Source: Anaeromyxobacteraceae bacterium
GTDB taxonomy: Bacteria > Myxococcota > Myxococcia > Myxococcales > Anaeromyxobacteraceae
Direction of reading: 5' to 3'
Assembly: GCA_047602405.1 (NCBI GenBank)
Contig: JASGHJ010000002.1
Span: 704,001-768,000, forward strand
DNA length: 64,000 bases
The number at the start of each line of letters is the position of its first letter. The stretch's first letter is position 1. The notes under the pieces were generated by a model, which was given only the letters and a program-made list of their open reading frames with translations, was not told the DNA's origin and did not search any database. The position numbers and the translations under genes are program-made. Positions 11,504 to 64,000 of this stretch are shown here, one piece after another.

Positions 11504-12883
11504 AGCCGAAGCTCTCCGACCTCTTCGACGCCTTCCAGGGCGTCGTCCCGTCGATCATCGCGACCGCCGGCGCCGACGGCACGCCGAACGTCACCTACAA
11601 CTCGCAGGTCTACTTCGTCGACGAGAACCACGTCGCGCTCTCCTGCCAGTTCTTCAACAAGACCCACCGGAACGTGCGCGAGAACCCGGCCGCCACGGTC
11701 GAGGTCTACGAGCCGGTGACGCTGCAGGCGTGGCGCCTGAGGCTCCACTTCGACCACATGGAGACCGAGGGCCCGCTCTTCGACGCGATGGCGCTGCGCA
11801 TCCAGGTGATCGCCTCGCACACCGGCATGTCCGGCGTGTTCAAGCTCCGCTCGGCGGACGTCTACGAGGTGCTGTCGCTCGAGCCGGTGGAGGGGATGTT
11901 CCTGCCCATCGACCCCGGCGCGCCGGTGGCGCTCCCGCTCGGGCCGCTGACCGAGCTCCGGGGCCTCCAGCTCGTCTCGGATCGCATCAACCGCGCGACC
12001 GATCTCGAGGGGCTCCTCGCCGGGGCGCTCGAGTCGCTCGACGAGACCTTCGGCTTCTCGCACGCGATGGTGCTCGTGCCGGAGGAGGCCGACGCGGGCC
12101 ACCTCGTCGCGCTCGCCACCCGCGGCTACGGCGCGGCGGGCGTCGGCGCCGAGGTGCGGCTCGGGGAGGGGATCATCGGCCTCTGCGCCGAGCGCCGGAA
12201 GATCATCCGGCTCGGCGGGATGGGCGGCGAGCTCCGCTACGGCCGGGCGCTCCGGGCCCGCGCCGCCACCGAGGGCGGGAAGCTCGCGCCGGAGGTGCCG
12301 CTCCCCGGGCTCGACCGGCCGCAGGCGCAGCTCGCCATCCCGCTCCAGGTCGGCGGCAGGCTCCTCGGCGTGCTCGCGCTCGAGAGCGAGGATCCGCTCC
12401 GCTTCGACGACTGGGACGAGCCGTACCTCACGGTCGTCGCGAACCAGAATCGCGCTCGGCATGGACCGGATGATGGGCCAGGAGGAGGACCCGGGCCACC
12501 CGCCCGCGCCCGCCCGCCGCGGCGCGGGGAAGCTCACCCCGCCCCCCGCCGCGAAGACCCGGCGCTTCCGCTACTACCTGAACGACGACTGCGTCTTCGT
12601 GGACGGCGAGTACCTCGTCCGGAACGTCCCGGCGAAGATCCTCTGGAAGGTGCTCGGCGAGCACGCGCGCGACGGCCGGCTCGAGTTCACGAACCGCGAG
12701 CTGCGCCTCGATCCGTCGCTGGGGCTGCCGGCCCTGAAGGACAACCTCGAGTCCCGGCTGATCCTCCTGCGCAAGCGGCTCGAGGAGAAGTGCCCCGACG
12801 TGAAGCTCGTGCCCGTCCGCCGCGGCCGCTTCGCCCTCCAGCTCTGCGCCGCCGTGGAGCTGGAGGAGGCGGCGACCGGGTAG
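11500..12883 (+). CDS. PNPOx-like + GAF + winged-helix regulator; +1 frameshift near 12448
   Basis: [17 protein letters not shown] (PNPOx-like); GEGIIG...[19 protein letters not shown] (GAF). Removing one A in CAGAATC gives [12 protein letters not shown], joining ORF 12461..12883 ([18 protein letters not shown]...[12 protein letters not shown]). Confidence 0.75.
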
Positions 12884-51482: not shown

Positions 51483-52066
51483 TGGACCTCGCCCCCGTGA
51501 CCCTGGCCGGCCGCCACGTGCGGCTCGAGCCGCTCGGACCGCACCACCTCGACGCGCTCTGGGAGGTCGCGCGCGATCCCGAGCTCTACCGGTTCACGCC
51601 GAGCGCGATCGGCACCCGCGACGAGCTCGGCCTCTGGCTCGTCGAGGCGGAGCAGGCGCGGCGGGCCGGCACCGCGCTCGCCTTCGCGACCGTGCTCGCA
51701 CAGGAAGGCCGGCCGGTCGGGAGCACGCGCTTCATGAACGCGAGCCCGAAGGACCGCCGCGTCGAGATCGGCTGGACGTTCGTGGGGCGCCCGTGGCAGC
51801 GCACCGCCGTCAACACCGAGGCGAAGTACCTCATGCTCCGCCACGCCTTCGAGGCCTGGGCGTGCCTGCGGGTGGAGCTCAAGACGAGCCACCGCAACGT
51901 CCAGTCGCAGGAGGCCATCCTGCGGCTCGGCGCGACGCGCGAGGGCGCGCTCCGCCGGCACACGCGCATGCACGACGGCACCTGGCGCGACACCGTCTAC
52001 TTCTCGGTGCTCGACGACGAGTGGCCGCGGGTGAAGGCGGGGCTCGAGGCGAAGCTGGCGCGGTAA
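51482..52066 (+). CDS. GNAT acetyltransferase, RimJ/RimL-like
   Basis: VRLEPL, VEIGWT, NTEAKYLMLRHAFE, RDTVYFSVLDDEWP. Confidence 0.88.
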   Translation: MDLAPVTLAGRHVRLEPLGPHHLDALWEVARDPELYRFTPSAIGTRDELGLWLVEAEQARRAGTALAFATVLAQEGRPVGSTRFMNASPKDRRVEIGWTFVGRPWQRTAVNTEAKYLMLRHAFEAWACLRVELKTSHRNVQSQEAILRLGATREGALRRHTRMHDGTWRDTVYFSVLDDEWPRVKAGLEAKLAR

Positions 52067-52094
52067 GGCCTCCGCCGAACCTCCGCGCCCCGCC

Positions 52095-52437
<343 letters not shown>

Positions 52438-54967: not shown

Positions 54968-55060
54968 GGCCCAAAATCTACCCGCTCGTCCCGCCGCGTG
55001 TCCCGGTCGTCCGGGGCGTCCCGATCCGTGCCCTCCGATCGTGCACCGATCGTGAGCGGC

Positions 55061-57170
55061 TCAGCGCAGCTTCGACCAGAGGAACGCGTAGGCGAGCGCT
55101 CCCATGTGCGCCGCCTGCCTGTTGTTCGCCGCCCCGCCGTGGCCGCCCTCGACGTTCTCCCAGTAGAGGACGTCGTGCCCGGCCTCGAGCATCCGCGCCG
55201 CCATCTTGCGGGCGTGTCCGGGGTGGACGCGGTCGTCGCGCGTGCTCGTCATGAAGAGCGACCGGCGGGTACCGCACCCCGGGCCGGAGGTTGTGATACG
55301 GCGAGAACGTCCGGATGAAGGTCCACTCCTCCGGCACGTCCGGGTCGCCGTACTCGCCCATCCAGCTCGCGCCGGCGAGGAGGTGCGAGTAGCGCTTCAT
55401 GTCGAGGAGCGGGACCTGGCAGACCACCGCGCCGAAGAGCTCGGGGCGCATCGTCAGCGCGTTGCCGACGAGGAGCCCGCCGTTCGAGCCGCCCTGGATG
55501 CCGAGGTGCGCGGGTGAGGTCACGCCGCGGCGCGCGAGGTCCTCGGCCACCGCGAAGAAGTCCTCGTAGGAGCGGGGGCGGTTGGCCTTCAGCGCGGCCT
55601 GGTGCCAGCGCGGCCCGAACTCGCCGCCGCCCCGGATGTTGGCGACGACGTACACGCCGCCGCGCTCGAGCCAGCTCGCGCCGACGCCGGGCCGGTAGGA
55701 CGGCTGCTCGGGGATCTCGAAGCCGCCGTAGCCGTAGAGCAGGGTGGGGTTCTTGCCGTCGAGGGCGAGCCCCTTCCGCGAGACCTGGAAGTACGGCACC
55801 CGGGTGCCGTCCCTCGAGACCACCTCGTGCTGCGTGACCTCGAGCCCGGCGGTGTCGAAGAAGGCGGGGAGCTGCTTCAGCCGGCCGGCGGGCCCCCGGC
55901 CCGCGGTGCCGCGCGAGAGGGCGGTCGGGGTGAGGAAGTCGGTGACCGTGAGCCAGTAGTCGTCGCTCGTCTCCTCGTCCACCGCCTTCACGCCGATGGC
56001 CGCGAGGCCGGGGAGGCCGGGGAGGGGCGCGCGCCTCCAGGCGCCCTTCCCGGGCGTGAGCACCGTGACCCGGTTGCGCACGTTGTCGAGCTCGGTGACG
56101 AGCACGTGGTGACGGGTGGTCGCGTAGCCGTCGAGCGAGCGCCGCTCCGAGGGCTCGAACAGGACGTCGAGCTTGCGGTCGCCGGCGAGGAACTTCTCGA
56201 GGTCGACGGCGACGAGCGCGCCCGCCGGGTAGGTCCGGCCCCCGGTGGCCCAGTCGTCCCGCAGGGTGAGGAGGAGGCGCTCCCGCCACACGTTCGCGTT
56301 CGCGGAGTCGGGCTTCTCGATCTTCACGAGCTTCTCGCCGCGTACGAGGTACAGCTCGTTCGTGAAGAAGGTGAGCCCGCGCTGCACGAGGTCGCGCTCG
56401 AAGCCCTTCGTGGGATCGTGGAAGCCGCTCACCGAGACGTCGCCGGGCTGGCCCTCGAAGAGCGTCGTGGCGGAGGCGAGCGGCGTGCCGCGCCGCCAGC
56501 GCTTCACGACCCGTGGGTAGCCGGAGCTGGTGAGCGTCCCCGGCCCGAAGTCGGTGCCCACGAGGAGCTCGTCCGGCCCGGCCCAGGCGACGTCGCTCTT
56601 CGCCTCCGGCAGGGCGAACCCGTCCTTCACGAAGGCCTTCGCCACGAGGTCGAACTCGCGCACCACGCTGGCGTCGCCGCCGCCGCGCGAGAGCGAGAGG
56701 AGGCAGCGCCGGAACCCGGGCCGCTGGCAGGTGGCCCCGTGCCAGACCCAGCTCTCCTTCTCCGCGTCGGCGAGCGCGTCGAGGTCGAGCACCGTCTCCC
56801 ACGCCGGGGCCGCCTTCCGGTACTCGGCGAGGGTGGTGCGCCGCCAGAGGCCGCGGGGGTTCCTCGCGTCGCGCCAGAAGTTGTAGAGCCGGTCTCCGAG
56901 CTGCTCGACGGCGGGGATGCGCTCCTTCGAGTCGAGGATCGAGAGGATGCGCGCCTCGCTGGCCGCGAAGTCGCCCTGCTCGAGGACCTTCGCGCTGTCG
57001 GCGTTCCGCGCCTTCACCCACCCGAGCGCGCGGTCGCCGAGCACGTCCTCGAGCCAGAGGTACGGGTCGTCCGGGGCCTGGGCGGGGGCCGGGGTGGCGC
57101 TCGCGGGGGTCGTGGGGGCGGGGTCGGTGGCGGTCACGGCGAGGGCGAGGACCAGGGGCAGGGTGGGCAT
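55061..57170 (-). CDS. Prolyl oligopeptidase, family S9A; +1 frameshift near 55260
   Basis: DPYLWLED, YGYGGF, NIRGGGEFG, GGSNGGLL; corrected frame YPPVLFMTSTRDDRVHPGH...GGHG completes the S-D-H triad. Confidence 0.9.
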
Positions 57171-57265: not shown

Positions 57266-60200
57266 ATGCCCCGCCGCCTCGCGCTCCTCCCTCCGCTCCT
57301 CGCCGCCCTCTCCGCCTGCGGCCATGGCGCGGAGAACGCACACGCCGACCGGCGGGCGCGGGACCTCGACGAGCTCTCGGCCCTGTGGAGCTGCTACCGG
57401 TACACGCACCTCGAGGAGGGCCGGGTGGTGGCCCACGACGAGGGCGGCATCACGACGTCCGAGGGGCAGGCGTACGCCATGCTCCGCGCGGTGTGGTCGG
57501 GGGACCGCCCCACCTTCGACGAGGTCTGGCGCTGGACGCGGGAGCACCTGCAGGTGCGCGACGACCACCTCCTGGCCTGGCGCTGGAAGGGGGCCGTGCT
57601 CGACCGGCACGCCGCCACCGACGCCGACCAGGACGCCGCCCTCGCGCTCGTGCTCGCCTCCCGCCGGTTCGGGGAGGCGCGCTACCTCGAGGAGGCGCGT
57701 CGCATCCTCGCGGATTCTCTGGGCCCGCACGGTGGTGTCGGCGGGCGGCCGGCGTCTGCCCACCGGCGGCGACTGGGCCCCGGCGGAGCGCTATCCGACG
57801 GTGCACGTCGCCTACCTCGCGCCCTACGCGTACGAGGTCTTCGCGGAGGTGGATCCCCGTCGTCCGTGGCGCGAGCTCGTCCGCGGGTCGTACGACGTGC
57901 TCCGGTTCCTGTACCTCGAGAAGGGCTACGTGCTCCCGCCCGAGCGGATCTGGGTGGACCCCCGCACGGGCGCGCTCCTCACCGCGCGCCCCGGCTCGGG
58001 CGAGCCCCTGCAGGCCTTCTCCTACGACGCCGTGCCGATCTTCTGGAGGGTCGCGCTCGACGCGCGGTGGTTCGGTCGCCGGGGCGAGGCGGACCTGCGG
58101 GCGCGGATGCTCGCGTTCCCGCGCGAGGCCTTCCGGGACGAGGGGCGGCTGCGGGATCGGTACTCGCCGAACGGGCTGCCCCGCTCCGCGCTGGACGGGC
58201 TGCCGCACCTCGCCTCCGTGCAGGCGCTGGCCGCGGTGGAGGACCCGGCGTTCGCGGCCCGCCTCCGCGAGGCCCGGCTCGACGGGCTGTTCACCGCCGC
58301 GGTCGCGGGAGGGGACACCCCGTACTACCTGCACAACTGGCTCTGGTTCGGCCGGGCGCTGGAGCTCGGGGTCACGCGCCGCTTCGACGAGCGCCTGGGG
58401 TTCCTGACCCTCGCGGACTGGACCCCGCTCCTCGAGGGCCTCCCCTGGGCGGCCTGCGCCGTCGCGCTCGCCCTCCTCCCCTTCGCCCGGCGGTTCGCCC
58501 TCGCCCGCGGGGCGTTCCTCGCCGTCGCGCTCGGCCTCTCGATCCGGTACCTCGCCTGGCGCGCCGCGGAGACCCTGAACTTCGTCGAGCCGCTCGGCCC
58601 GCTCATCAGCCTCGCGCTGCTCGGCGCGGAGCTCTACGCGCTCTCCACCGTGGTGCTCCTCGCCGTCCAGGTCGGGCTCCGGCGCCGCGCCCGGCCCGCT
58701 CCGCCCCCCCTCGCGCCGGACGAGCCGCACCCGACGGTGGACGTGCTCGTCCCGATCTACTCCGAGTCGCTCGAGATCCTGGACCGGACGCTCACCGCGT
58801 GCGCGGCGCTGCGCTGGCCGGCGAAGACGGTCTGGGTGTGCGACGACTCCCACCGCGAGGAGGTCGCCCGGCTCGCCGCGGAGCACGGCGCGCGCTACCT
58901 GCGAGGCCCGAAGCGCCACGCGAAGGCGGGCAACCTGAACGCGGCGCTGCAGGTGACCTCCGGCGAGCTCGTCGCGATCTTCGACACCGACCACGTCCCG
59001 GTCGCGGCCTTCCTCGAGCGGACCGCGCCGCACTTCCGCGACGGGCGGGTGGGCTTCGTCCAGACCCCGCACCACTTCTCGAACCCGGACGTGTTCCAGC
59101 GGGCGCTGGTCGCGCCGGCGGCGGTCCCCAACGAGGCCGACCTCTTCAACCACGCCATCCAGGCCGGGCGGGACCGCTGGGGGGGCGCGTTCTTCGTGGG
59201 GAGCGGCGCGGTCTTCCGCCGGGCCGCGCTCGCGTCGGTCGGCGGGTTCCAGCTCCTCTCGATCACGGAGGACATCCACACGAGCCAGAAGCTGCACGCG
59301 AAGGGCTGGCGGTCGGCCTTCGTGGACGAGGACCTCGCGGTGGGGCTCTCGGCGGAGGGGCTCGCGTCGTACCTCGTGCAGCGCCGCCGGTGGATGCTCG
59401 GCTGCCTCCAGAATCTTCTTCCGCGACAACCCGCTGCTCGAGCGCGGGCTGCCGCTGCGCCACCGGATCGGCTACTTCGCCTCGCTCTGGTACTTCTTCT
59501 TCCCGCTGGCGCGGGTCGTGTTCTTCGCGACGCCGCTCCTCTACCTGTACTTCCACCTCCACCCCATCTTCGCGGACCTCCCGGTCCTGCTCGCCCACCT
59601 GCTCCCGCACCTCGGGGCCTCCGCGCTCGCCGCGAGCGTGCTCGTGCCGGGCTGGCCGCGGGCGCTGTGGGGGTCGCTCTACGAGGCCGCGGTCGCGTTC
59701 CCGCTCGCCCGGGCCACCCTCGACCTCGTCCTGCCGAAGACCCTCGCGTTCAAGGTGACGCCGAAGGGCGTCGTGACCGACCGGCGGCGCTTCGACGTCG
59801 CGTCCTCCCGCCTCACGCTCCTCGCCGCGGCGGTCACGCTGGGCGGGATCCTGAAGGGCGCCTTCGAGCTCGCGGCCTTCGGGATCGAGGTGGAGGCCTA
59901 TGCCTTCAACCTCGCGTGGGCCGGGGCGGGCCTGGCGGGGCTGCTCGGCGCCCTGCTGGTGGCGTGGGAGCGCCCGCAGCGGCGCGCCGACGAGCGGCTC
60001 GCGCGCCGCGTCCGCGTCGTGCTGGAGCACGGCGGCCTCGCGGCGGAGGCCGAGACCGTGGATCTCTCCACGACGGGCGCCCGCGTCGCCCTGCCCGCGG
60101 GGGCCGCGCTCCCGCCGCGCCTCCGGGTGGCCTTCGCGGACGCGCCCGGGCTCCGGATCACGGCGCGGGTCGCCTGGCGGGAGGCGGCGCGCGGCGGGAT

Positions 60201-60669
60201 CGAGGCCGGGCTCGCCTTCGAGGGTGCGGGCGCCGTGGAGCGGCGCGCCCTCGCGCGGCTCGCGTACTCGGCGGACGGCGCGCTCGCGGGTGCGCACGGG
60301 GCGCGCGCGCGCACGCCGCTCGGGATGGCGTGGCACTTCGTGGCCGGCCTCGTGCGGGCGCTCCGGTCCGGCCGCGGGCGGCGGAGGCTGGAGGCGAGGC
60401 GGCTCCGTCCGCGCCTCGCCCGCTGGGTCGGCCCCGGCGGCGCGCGCCGGGTCCTGCTCCTCGACGCCTCGGCGGGCGGCCGCGGCGCGCTCTTCCTCGG
60501 CGGGGCGCCCGCGCCCGGCGAGGCGCTGCCGCTCGTGGAGCGCGCCGGCGTGCGCGCCACCCGCGTCGCGTACGCGCGGCGGCTCCTGCCCGGGCTGTGG
60601 CGGGTGGGGCTCGCCTTCCCGCCCGGTCCGCTCGCGCCCGCCCGGCCGCGTGCCTACGTTGCGGCGTGA
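57266..60669 (+). CDS. bcsA: Lipoprotein GH8 endoglucanase fused to BcsA-type GT2 synthase with two PilZ domains; +1 frameshifts at 57716 and 59412 (about 1133 aa corrected)
   Basis: Lipobox LSAC; GH8 motifs TSEGQAYAML, ATDAD, FSYDAV, YYLHNW; same frame continues to YLAWRAAETL, VDVLVPIYSE, CDD, HAKAGNLN, FDTDH, QTPH, FFVGS, TED, QRRRW; then FKVTPKG, RADER...DLSTTG and RLEAR...DASAGG. Confidence 0.85.
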
Positions 60670-62760
60670 ACCGCTCCACCGCCGCCCGGGCCGTCGTGGT
60701 CGCACTCGTCGTGAGCGGGGCGCCCGCCAGCCCGCGCGCCGGCCTCGCCGAGGGGTGGTACCTCGCGCGGGGCCGCGCCAACCTGGAGATCGCGAACTAC
60801 GCCGCCGCGGTCGAGGCCTTCAAGAAGGCGCTCGAGCACGATCCCGGCAACCGGGAGGCGTCGCGCTCGCTCGGGATCGCCCTGCAGCGCAACGGCGAGA
60901 CCGACGCGGCCGTGGCCCAGTACGGCCGCCACCTGGAGCGCTTCCCGGACGACGCCGAGATCGCGTTCGCCCTCGCGCGGGTGCTGCAGTGGTCCCGCTA
61001 CGCGTACCGGTCGGCCGACGCCGTCCGCTACCTGCGGCTGGGCCTGAGGTCCCGGGAGGACCCCGCCCGGCGGCGCGAGCTCGCGCGCCTGCTCGCCCGG
61101 GACCCCGCCACCCGCGACGAGGCCGTCGAGAGCTACCGGCGGCTCCTCGCGGCGGCCCCGGGGGACGCGGCGCTGCGCGAGGAGTACCTGAAGCTCCTCC
61201 TGTGGGATCGGCGGCGCCGCGGCGAGGCGATCGCCGAGCTGGAGCGCCGCACCGCCGAGGCGCCGGGCGACGAGCGGCTCTCGCGGGAGCTCGCGCGCCT
61301 CCTCGCGGAGGACCCCCGGCGCGCGGACGAGGCGGCGCGGCGCTACGCGGCGCTCGTGGCGGCCCACCCGGACGATCCGGAGCTCCGCCTCGGTCGGGCG
61401 CGCGCGCTCGCGAGGCTCGGCCGGCGCGACGAGGCGCTCGTGGACTACGGCCGGGCGGTCGCCGCGCGGCCGGCGTGGATCGACGCGCGGGTCGAGCAGG
61501 CGGACCTCCTCGCCGCCGAGCCGGAGGGGCGGGAGGCTGCGCGCCGCGCGTACGAGGGCGTGCTCCGGGAGGCCCCCGGCAACCGGCGGGCCCGGGTCGG
61601 GCTCGCGCGGGTCCTCGGCGCGCGCAAGGAGACGGCGCCCGACGCCATCCGCGCCTACGAGGCGGTGCTCCGCGAGGCGCCGCGCGACGCGGAGGCCCAC
61701 GGGGGCCTCGCCCGCGCCTACGCCTGGGAGGGCGACCCGGACCGGGCGCTCGTTCACGCCGCGGCCGCGCGCCGGCTCGGCCCCGACCGGGCGGACCTCG
61801 CGGCCCTGACCCAGGCGCTGCGGGAGGGCCGCGAGCCCGCGCTGGGCGGCGGCGTCCGGGTGCTGTCGCAGCTCGGCGCAGGGGCCTCGGCGCTGGAGCG
61901 CGTGGGGGGGCTCGTCCAGGGCGAGCTCGAGCCGACGCCGTTCACGCGCGCGGAGAGCGAGGTGGGCTGGGCCGAGGCGCGCGGGCCCGCGGGCGCCCGT
62001 GCGGCCGGGGCGATCGCGGCGGGTGCCCTCACCGTCCGGCCCGGGGACGAGGTCCGGCTGCGCCTGGGGCTGTCCTGGGATGGGCTGCGCCTCGGGGGGC
62101 GGCTCGGCGGGGAGGTGGGGCTCGCGCGCCCGCTCGACGCGGGGGAGCTCGCGCTCCGCGCCGTGCGCCAGGCGAGGACCGACTCCTACCGGGCCTACGC
62201 GGGCGAGCGGCTCGCGGGAGGCGGGCTCGCCGGCGGCGCCTCGGAGAGCTACGCGGAGGTGCGCCTGCGTCGAGGGGGTGACGCGACCTTCGAGGTCGCG
62301 GCGCGCGCGGGGGCGATCGACGCCGAGGGTACGCCGGCGACGCTCCTCGCGGGCGCGAGCGCGCGGGCGGGGCGCATCCTCCTGGGAGGGCCCCGGTTCG
62401 GCCTCGGCGTGGCGCTCGCCGGGGTGGCGCTCCACCACGGCCGCCGCCTCGACGCCGGCGCGCTGGACGGGCGCGGCCCCGGGCTCTTCTCGCCACCCGC
62501 TCTTCGGGAGCGCGTCTCCCCGGCTCACGCTCGCGCTCGACGGGGGGACGGCCGGATGGCTCTCGGTCGACGCGGGGCCCTCGGCCCAGTGGACGGCGGG
62601 CCCGGGAGGAGCGGTGCGCCTGGGGGGCGATGCCGCGCTCTCCGGGGCGTGGCGCCTCGCCGGGCCGCTGCGGCTCTCCGGCGCGCTGCGGGCCGAGCGC
62701 GTCGCCGCGGTCTACACCCGGTTCGAGGCGTCGGCCTCGCTGGCGGTGCTGTTCCCGTGA
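60666..62760 (+). CDS. TPR-repeat + C-terminal beta-barrel export protein, BcsC-like; +1 frameshift near 62497
   Basis: Translated by hand from GTG 60666 (GTGA overlap): signal peptide, many TPRs (YAAAVEAFKKALEHDPGN...), beta-rich tail with RTDSYRAYAG, ending YTRFEASASLAVLFP*. Absent from the ORF track because the frame has no stop before the window end. Confidence 0.7.
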
Positions 62761-64000
62761 GCGCGGCCCGGTGCACGACGCTCGCGGCGCTCGTCGCCTC
62801 TCCGCGGCCAGCCGCGGAGGCGCTCGCGATCGGGGCCGCGCTGGCCCGGGCGGTCGAGGAGCTGCACCGCGCCGGCGAGGTCCACGGCGCGCTCCACCCG
62901 GGCGCCGCGGAGCTCGGGGCGGAGGGGGTGGTCGTCCTCGCCGCGGCGCCCGCCGCCGGCGCCCCGCTCGCGCCGGAGCGCGCACCCGCGCTGCCGTTCG
63001 CCGCGCCCGAGGTGCTCCGGGGGAGCCGGCCGGGGAGGCCGGCCGACGTCTTCTCGACGGCCGCCGTCATCCACGCGCTCCTCGCCGGCTCGCCCCCGTT
63101 CGGCGCGGGCGAGCCGCTCGCGATCGTGCACCGGATCCTGTACGGCCGGCCGGTCCGCGCCGGCGCGCTCCCGCCCGGCCCCGATCGCGCGGGACAGGCC
63201 GCGCTCGCGGCGGCCCTGTCTCGGCGCCCGCGCCGGCGCCCGACCGCGCGGGTCCTGGCGGCCGCGCTCGAGCGCGCGCTCGAGTCGGGCGCGCCCCACG
63301 CCGCCGCGCCGCACGCCGCCGCGCCCCACGCCGCCGCGCCCCACGCCGCCGCGCCCCACGCCGCCGCGCCGCACGCCGCGGTGCCGCACGCCGACGCGCC
63401 GGCCGGGAGGCCACGTCGCGCCACCGCGCTCGCGAGGGCCGCCGCGGCCCGCGTGCGCGCGGCGCTCCCGCCGCTCCCTCCCTTCCCGCGGCCCCCCCGC
63501 CTGCGGGCCGCCGGCGCGCTCGGCGTGATCGGCGCGGCCGCGCTGCTCTTCGCGGCGATCGGCGCGTTCGTGCTCGGGGGCGGCATGGGGCTGCGGTCCC
63601 GGGTGGAGGCGCTCGTCGCGCGCGGCGAGCTCGCCCGCGCGCGGCAGCTGCTCGAGGCCGCCGGCCCCGATGACGACCCGGTCGTCGAGAAGCTCCGGGG
63701 AGATCTCGCCTGCGCCGAGGGCCGACCCGCGGACTGCCTGCGCCGCTACCGCGCCGCGCTCGGCGGGAGGCCCGAGCTCCGCGCGGACGGGTTCGTGCGC
63801 GCGAACACCGTCCGGCTGCTGGACGGCGCGCAGCCCTGCGCCGTCCGCCGGGCGGCGGCCCTGCTGCTCGTGGAGGTCCGGGACCCCGCGGCGCTGCCCG
63901 CGCTCGAGCGCGCGCGCCGGTCGGCGGGCCTCCTCGCGATCTTCTGCGAGGGGGACGCCCTCGATCGTGCGCTCGTCGCGACCCGGGCCGAGGCGCGGCA
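62757..64000 (+). CDS. Membrane pseudokinase (Ser/Thr kinase C-lobe only), runs off the window end
   Basis: GTGA overlap; LHRAGEVHGALHPGA (in place of HRDLKPxN), FAAPEVL, ADVFS, LLAGSPPF; repeat linker, TM helix, helical C-terminal domain. Confidence 0.7.
   Translation, partial: MSAARCTTLAALVASPRPAAEALAIGAALARAVEELHRAGEVHGALHPGAAELGAEGVVVLAAAPAAGAPLAPERAPALPFAAPEVLRGSRPGRPADVFSTAAVIHALLAGSPPFGAGEPLAIVHRILYGRPVRAGALPPGPDRAGQAALAAALSRRPRRRPTARVLAAALERALESGAPHAAAPHAAAPHAAAPHAAAPHAAAPHAAVPHADAPAGRPRRATALARAAAARVRAALPPLPPFPRPPRLRAAGALGVIGAAALLFAAIGAFVLGGGMGLRSRVEALVARGELARARQLLEAAGPDDDPVVEKLRGDLACAEGRPADCLRRYRAALGGRPELRADGFVRANTVRLLDGAQPCAVRRAAALLLVEVRDPAALPALERARRSAGLLAIFCEGDALDRALVATRAEAR
63291..63395 (+). 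repeat. 15-bp tandem repeat x7 encoding (APHAA)6-VPHAD
   Basis: GCGCC(C/G)CACGCCGCC units start at 63291, 63306, 63321, 63336, 63351, 63366 and 63381; the last two are imperfect. Confidence 0.9.

Follow-up and report, generated by a model that had tools for sequence, protein, structure and literature searches.

The canonical bacterial cellulose (Bcs) systems of types I-III have bcsB in tandem with bcsA and a separate periplasmic BcsZ. BcsA, BcsB and BcsC have been called the minimal secretion machinery, and BcsZ of Escherichia coli was found to diffuse freely and was not co-localised with BcsA (bioRxiv 10.64898/2026.08.24.745826). Catalysis in E. coli and Rhodobacter sphaeroides depends on the tail of BcsB (PMC8892547). 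In E. coli, the first tetratricopeptide repeat (TPR) of BcsC binds BcsB, no contact between BcsZ and BcsC is reported as detected, and export of cellulose needs cellulase activity (PMC11379886). The locus described here has neither the tandem bcsB nor the separate BcsZ. The window, a 64,000-nucleotide stretch of contig JASGHJ010000002.1 (positions 704,001 to 768,000) from an Anaeromyxobacteraceae bacterium, encodes a single polypeptide in which a glycoside hydrolase family 8 (GH8) domain is fused to a BcsA-type synthase of glycosyltransferase family 2 (GT2) and to PilZ domains, followed by a gene for a short BcsC-type exporter. The two genes are referred to below as the cassette.

The cassette is a real, conserved and apparently undescribed variant of the Bcs system. 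The available text of PMC8892547, PMC9693552, 10.1101/814665, PMC7112194, PMC10237404, PMC12430437, PMC11379886, PMC5407803 and bioRxiv 10.64898/2026.08.24.745826 together names the fusions BcsAB and BcsZC (both in PMC7112194), an ascidian synthase-hydrolase, the GH17-GT2 Orphan protein and BcsB-less cyanobacterial systems, and no paper describing a GH8-BcsA fusion was found in a literature search that covered few subscription papers. The operon survey in PMC7112194 assumes bcsA plus bcsB and, in its available text, lists four Anaeromyxobacter genomes only for Pel or poly-N-acetylglucosamine (PNAG); two of these four species carry the fusion protein. The architecture is already in the databases, where homologues are named 'glycosyl hydrolase family 8' or 'cellulose synthase'.

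The fusion gene is made up of three stop-free frames on the forward strand. The first (57266-57715, 150 residues) holds the signal and the N-terminal half of GH8 (PF01270, E 2.3e-23), so that the domain proposed as GH8 by the first-pass annotation of this stretch does score as such. The second (57717-59411, 565 residues) holds the C-terminal half of GH8, three transmembrane (TM) helices and the GT2 core, and its Pfam matches are to GT2/cellulose synthase; the third (59413-60669) holds the C-terminal TM helices and PilZ (PF07238, E 1.9e-13). Since the middle frame contains both the second half of GH8 and the GT2 core, the fusion is independent of any mending of frameshifts, as had been noted in that annotation. 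The C-terminal half of GH8 alone, within the 565-residue piece, gave no Pfam score; it is recognised as GH8 from intact homologues, the best of which share 76-78% identity with the entire piece, and from their match to CelA and CMCax. All of the motifs LSAC, SEGQ, ATDAD, YDA, DD, DxD, TED and QRRRW are found in the window.

The single GH8-BcsA-PilZ polypeptide predicted at the outset is borne out by its relatives. GH8 (PF01270) and GT2 occur in one chain in 119 of the best 120 of 354 matches among longer proteins, nearly all of 1,030-1,210 residues. The homologues are not encoded as two separate genes: in 77 of the 80 loci kept from a species-genome scan (187 relatives), the motifs place the end of GH8 and the DD of GT2 in a single frame uninterrupted by stops, and the other three are single full-length open reading frames (ORFs). 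A split GH8 and synthase as the normal state was considered and rejected because the short close matches are mostly truncated pieces and the two that were traced are extra free copies behind bcsC. The 80 loci come from Anaeromyxobacter, other Myxococcota, Nitrospira, Bdellovibrionota, KSB1, Elusimicrobia and one spirochaete bin, and cultured carriers include Anaeromyxobacter and Nitrospira moscoviensis. Within the window's own family, 30 of 92 genomes gave a match, 22 of them fusion-type and 8 synthase-only.

A synthase tree was built from 91 rows, namely 20 selected fusions, 31 synthases with short N termini, 18 of 45 BcsAB proteins and 22 of 40 others, with no mixed-linkage synthase. In it, the fusions and two probably truncated members fall on one side of a branch with support of 100, among short-N-terminus synthases and apart from BcsAB. 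The GH8 tree compares 22 fused domains with 37 free ones, taken as every other free match of 350-460 residues that has an NPSY-type motif, and separates the two groups with support of 99. Both are quick trees whose root was not tested, and a single origin of the fusion, with which they would agree, is not proved.

The synthase part is of BcsA type. The motifs DD, DxD, QTPH and TED, the Q/R/R/W residues and the F/T/P/K gating loop are each present in 120 of 120 homologues, which upholds the complete GT2 core (DD, DxD, TED, QRRRW) read earlier from the window. The homologue P0001 matches E. coli BcsA with a phmmer E of 7.9e-98. Its AlphaFold model (predicted local distance difference test [pLDDT] 88.6, predicted template modeling score 0.77) has BcsA as its top Foldseek matches, GH8 structures are also matched, and residues 386-1035 align with residues 37-726 of R. 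sphaeroides BcsA (5ej1). Hydropathy gives three TM helices before GT2 and not the four of BcsA, and the BcsA match begins at residue 37. From the model, TM1 of BcsA would be absent and GH8 would be attached at the periplasmic start of TM2. Because the number of TM helices between GH8 and GT2 is odd, GH8 is predicted to be periplasmic. The nearest unfused synthases likewise are without TM1 and begin just before TM2. When the P0001 model is aligned without trimming, its N-terminal signal helix seems, at low confidence, to coincide with the region of BcsA TM1 (residue 1 against residue 19 of 4p00; pLDDT ~50), and the place of TM1 may be taken by the signal or the lipid anchor.

The lipobox anchor at Cys18, a pattern-based prediction in which the Cys of LSAC follows a short hydrophobic signal, stands for the window but not as a feature of the family. 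Among 72 loci with a readable N terminus, the strict pattern is found in 15 of 20 Myxococcota-type, 2 of 45 Nitrospira, none of 3 Bdellovibrionota and 2 of 4 other loci, and the loci that lack it have ordinary cleavable-looking signals. At the other end of the protein, the second PilZ-like domain is present in 114 of 120 homologues, some lineages being without it. The own genome has 11 GGDEF matches above the cut-off.

Residues Glu66 and Asp254 of the fused GH8 align to Glu95 and Asp278 of CelA (CelA numbers derived from the chain offset), and the -1-subsite Asp and Tyr are also present. Asp278 is the base of CelA, and GH8 is an inverting family (PMC5407803). The P0001 model superposes on CelA 1kwf with Z 40.3 and a root-mean-square deviation of 2.2 over 327 residues, and by sequence GH8 is matched best by CMCax, CelA and BcsZ. 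Both catalytic acids are kept in 119 of 119 fusions. The first-pass description of the catalytic motifs as intact is thus correct for SEGQ, ATDAD and the two acids, but the -1-subsite Arg, three residues past the base, is replaced by Pro in 119 of 119 fusions whereas all 78 free relatives have it. At the Asn position of NPSY, the 119 fusions without exception have His, and the 78 free relatives have Asn or Asp. This free set comprises the 78 nearest free GH8s, at <43% identity; 42 closer short GH8 matches are mostly truncated members of the fusion family. Arg246 of BcsZ holds the -1 sugar (bioRxiv 10.64898/2026.08.24.745826), and no paper on this GH8 Arg position was found in the literature. 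Across the fused domain, 90 of 343 columns are at least 97% conserved. No other GH8 was found in the own genome, where the fused domain is the sole match.

One lineage retains the fused domain after loss of its catalytic Glu. P0389 has a full-length fused GH8 in which the catalytic Glu is Gln and the ATDAD, HVAY and YY motifs are lost, with all GT2 motifs intact. It is identical at 792 of 794 positions to the fusion of metagenome locus L091, whose fused GH8 is read as degenerate by way of this near-identity. In L091 (2377-6134) and in a second metagenome locus, L092 (1074-4941), the fusion is followed by a longer BcsC (ORFs of 875-905 residues) and then by a free lipoprotein GH8. Both free domains carry the His/Pro signature and both catalytic acids, and the one in L091 keeps all catalytic residues. 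The retention of a dead fused GH8 beside an intact free copy suggests a structural role for the fused domain. The sequences suggest duplication and division of labour, in which the fused barrel would be needed as structure while cutting would still be needed.

The start of the partner gene overlaps the fusion stop (GTGA). A short BcsC-type gene lies directly downstream in 67 of 67 loci with room for one, 66 of them by a profile built from 24 of these loci and the window and the last one by ORF. In partner homologues, a signal peptide and TPRs precede a barrel recognised as BCSC_C (best E 4.7e-11); of six that were scanned, the domain is above the cut-off in three, weak in two and absent in one. 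A family search gave no BCSC_C match in the own genome, so the barrel of the window's partner is divergent. The model of the partner has 16 strands, and its top Foldseek matches are the BcsC structures 9b8a, 9b8h and 6tzk. The partner is 520-700 residues long in most loci, and many columns of its N-terminal TPRs are invariant, which would fit a candidate binding site there. In four proteins from separate 50% clusters (P0242-P0245), GH8, BcsA, PilZ and BcsC form one ORF. The join is a hydrophobic signal-like stretch ending in an AxA-type site, and these triple fusions are likely cut by signal peptidase. P0042 was rejected as a further triple fusion, its junction being out-of-frame sequence.

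Besides the BcsC-type gene, no neighbour common across lineages was found around the fusion, in a comparison that, for HlyD-like adaptor genes too, covered only the surroundings of the fusion. A kinase-like ORF follows in the window (62757-64000, forward strand; weak Pkinase match, E 3.7e-5, below the cut-off), has a short tandem PHAAA-type repeat and starts in overlap with the bcsC stop; it is not among the neighbours shared across lineages.

No BcsB was detected by Pfam in the own genome (98% complete) or in any of 50 genomes, which are the sources of 50 of the 80 loci. A custom profile built from 45 BcsB regions matched three canonical-operon control loci but gave no match in the own genome or in the fusion loci. 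The absence of BcsB, the overlapping BcsC-type gene and the second PilZ-like domain all go beyond what the first-pass annotation had described. The possibility that the linker is a captured BcsB tail was unsupported, as hhalign comparisons with 44 BcsB tails, 44 BcsA N termini and 21 short N termini gave no similarity. In two Nitrospira genomes, a second, unfused synthase of 756 residues with tandem PilZ domains and without TM1 (L067:4136-7080 and L059:708-3655, both on the reverse strand) lies a few kb from the cassette and is followed by a BcsS-like gene (PF17036, E 7.6e-8 in L067). Canonical-type operons with BcsB, a long BcsC, BcsQ or a free GH8 are seen in L087, L089 and L090, from other members of the same family, and in L088 a BcsG gene adjoins a synthase.

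The GH8-BcsA-PilZ-PilZ fusion and the short BcsC probably form, on the balance of these observations, a two-protein, BcsB-independent system that makes and exports a cellulose-like beta-1,4-glucan. In such a system, cyclic di-GMP (c-di-GMP) bound to PilZ would open the gating loop, GT2 would polymerise UDP-glucose and push the chain through the membrane channel, the GH8 barrel held on the periplasmic face before TM2 would take up the chain, and the TPRs and barrel of the short BcsC would carry it over the outer membrane. GH8 likely has two jobs: it would stand in for BcsB as a structural cap and guide, and it would act as a retuned cutter that frees stalled chains or sets chain length. Hydrolysis would be needed, because both catalytic acids are invariant in the 119 fusions and because E. 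coli export depends on cellulase activity (PMC11379886).

Several points weigh against this proposal. A distant BcsB could have escaped detection, and a large share of the 50 genomes are incomplete. In profile comparison, the linker and first TM do not resemble the BcsB tail (hhalign probability 3.7), so that catalysis would have to proceed without that tail. In Nitrospira, the TPR arm of the partner is only ~190 residues, whereas the E. coli periplasm is spanned by 19 TPRs (~150 A) together with BcsB (~70 A) (PMC11379886); a continuous conduit would seem too short to reach unless Nitrospira has a narrow envelope. The case of the dead GH8 comes from one lineage with two member sequences, and the 5' part of the L091 fused GH8 is not in the sequence. 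A fuller version of the proposal is put forward as a tentative possibility. GH8 would have taken over the job of BcsB by capping the channel, guiding the chain and docking the first TPRs of a miniature BcsC. A complete c-di-GMP-gated cellulose secretion machine, its retuned site setting chain length, would then consist of two genes or, in some lineages, of a single polyprotein that processes itself.

A separate question is whether the copy in this strain is a decaying pseudogene cassette, which would leave the conclusions on the family unaffected. There are three frameshifts in its two genes, the cassette is patchy (fusion-type matches in 22 of the 92 family genomes), and 2 of 14 orthologous genes checked are frameshifted, both of them cassette genes, which fits local decay too and counts against an error of assembly. 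However, the extra bases that had been called at 57716 and 59412 each double an existing letter (TT at 57715-57716, AA at 59412-59413), an alignment of 120 homologues has a gap in one row at the first site and in none at the second, there is no in-frame stop, and all motifs are intact. A codon-bias frame-switch scan that recovered all three known breaks of the cassette gave 72 candidates in 1.1 Mb of the own genome versus 1 in 131 kb of control loci, and five candidates lie at 52.3-62.5 kb of the window, two of them in unrelated genes. Decay is thus unlikely, though not negligible, and assembly error is the likelier source, with a cassette copy that is probably intact in the cell. Programmed frameshifting was rejected, as the breaks in five other broken loci are at different sites and the majority of homologues each form a single ORF. 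Elsewhere in the window, apparent frameshifts are seen near 55257 in a prolyl oligopeptidase gene (Pfam S9; 54978-57170, reverse strand) and near 52299 in a gene (51997-52437, reverse strand) that we take from its sequence to be P-II/GlnB-like, and further frame-switch candidates are at 12447, 16791, 42513 and 44787.

Returning to the family, the fusion might only provide 1:1 expression and proximity of an ordinary BcsZ-type cellulase to a synthase lineage that was already free of BcsB, with no structural role for GH8. The short N termini of the nearest unfused synthases would agree with this, as would the two such Nitrospira genes in loci without a BcsB match, and E. coli BcsZ is non-structural and replaceable by other cellulases (PMC11379886). 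Such a tether is nevertheless improbable given the dead fused GH8 that is retained at full length beside a free, active-looking copy, the strong conservation of the GH8 columns, and the active-site changes that are fixed in fusions and found in none of the free relatives. Alternatively, the tethered GH8 could cut the emerging chain into short cello-oligosaccharides for the periplasm or the medium, the product suggested by the first-pass annotation. Its catalytic acids are invariant, it would be held beside the channel, and Orphan/NdvB proteins of the same topology are linked to small cyclic glucans (PMC10237404), but the constant partner is an outer-membrane BcsC-type pore for polymer, the -1-subsite Arg is lost in all fusions and one lineage retains the fusion with a dead GH8, so that such a product is a little less probable again. 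Least probable is another beta-glucan, mixed-linkage or remodelled by the altered GH8 as a transfer enzyme: the GH8 site is remodelled, GH8 relatives in the PDB include a beta-1,3-1,4-glucanase, xylanases and a chitosanase, and the BcsA-like BgsA makes mixed-linkage glucan (PMC5567048), but the best sequence and structure matches are to BcsA, those of GH8 are to CMCax, CelA and BcsZ, the pore is BcsC-like, and the inverting mechanism of GH8 (PMC5407803) disfavours transfer.

Table 1. Features of the cassette, in window coordinates.
Feature	Position	Strand	Evidence
Signal peptide with lipobox LSAC (Cys18, 57317-57319); predicted lipoprotein anchor, lineage-specific	57266..57319	+	Sequence; homologue N termini
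GH8 N-terminal half; catalytic acid Glu66 (57461-57463), ATDAD	57320..57715	+	Pfam; Glu in 119/119; aligned to CelA Glu95
Frameshift 1: doubled T, one extra base, probably assembly error	57715..57716	+	Homologue alignment; frame-switch scan
GH8 C-terminal half; HVAY for NPSY, base Asp254 (58026-58028), Pro257 for -1-subsite Arg, YYLHNW end	57717..58382	+	Alignment; model of P0001
Short linker and three TM helices corresponding to BcsA TM2-TM4	58383..58682	+	Hydropathy; model alignment to BcsA
GT2 core: DD, HAKAG, DxD, QTPH, FFVGS, TED, QRRRW	58728..59411	+	Pfam; key residues in 120/120
Frameshift 2: doubled A, one extra base, probably assembly error	59412..59413	+	Homologue alignment; frame-switch scan
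C-terminal TM helices and gating loop FKVTPK	59413..59976	+	Homologue comparison
PilZ domain 1 (RxxxR, DxSxxG)	59977..60267	+	Pfam PF07238, E 1.9e-13; motif counts
Second PilZ-like domain (RxxxR, DxSxxG)	60373..60627	+	Motifs; six-strand domain in model
Short BcsC-type exporter: signal peptide, TPRs, C-terminal beta-barrel; one frameshift near 62490	60666..62760	+	Pfam TPRs; homologues; model

The fusion family would be a natural counter-example both to the BcsA-BcsB-BcsC minimum and to a freely diffusing BcsZ. It would make two old questions testable in one polypeptide, namely why export needs a cellulase and what the BcsB tail does for catalysis. The predicted glucan would be a candidate for the matrix polymers of nitrifying flocs and of biofilms in soil (Anaeromyxobacter, N. 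moscoviensis), and a two-gene synthase-exporter would be the simplest cassette for heterologous cellulose production.

The cassette shares with the canonical Bcs systems of E. coli, R. sphaeroides and Komagataeibacter (4p00, 9b8v, 3qxf, 9b8a) a synthase of BcsA type that has a gating loop and PilZ, a GH8 domain in which both catalytic acids are present, and an exporter with TPRs and a 16-strand barrel. It differs from them in that GH8 is fused before TM2, TM1 is lacking, no BcsB was found, there are usually two PilZ domains, BcsC is short in most loci and GH8 has the Arg-to-Pro and Asn-to-His changes. The hydrolase domain of the ascidian cellulose synthase is a GH6 domain at the C terminus. 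That fusion, which had been offered for comparison as tunicate CesA, is indeed mentioned as a cellulose synthase with a glycosyl hydrolase domain (PMC8892547) and likewise joins the two in one chain, but it is eukaryotic, its hydrolase differs in family and position, and it is without PilZ or an outer-membrane pore. The cyanobacterial XcsA-XcsB-XcsC system (PMC8892547, PMC12430437) also has a PilZ-bearing synthase without BcsB and an endoglucanase, but it uses a HlyD-like adaptor, a TolC-like exit and a separate endoglucanase, whereas in the cassette BcsC is kept and the glucanase is fused. The closest known bacterial architecture is the GH17-GT2 Orphan/NdvB protein of pseudomonads (PMC10237404), which shares a signal peptide, a periplasmic hydrolase, three TM helices, a cytoplasmic GT2 and further TM helices. 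The hydrolase of Orphan/NdvB is a GH17 triosephosphate isomerase (TIM) barrel transglycosylase acting on beta-1,3-glucan, the protein is without RxxxR, and a cyclic glucan is its proposed product; the fusion instead carries an inverting GH8 barrel and PilZ domains and is paired with an outer-membrane pore.

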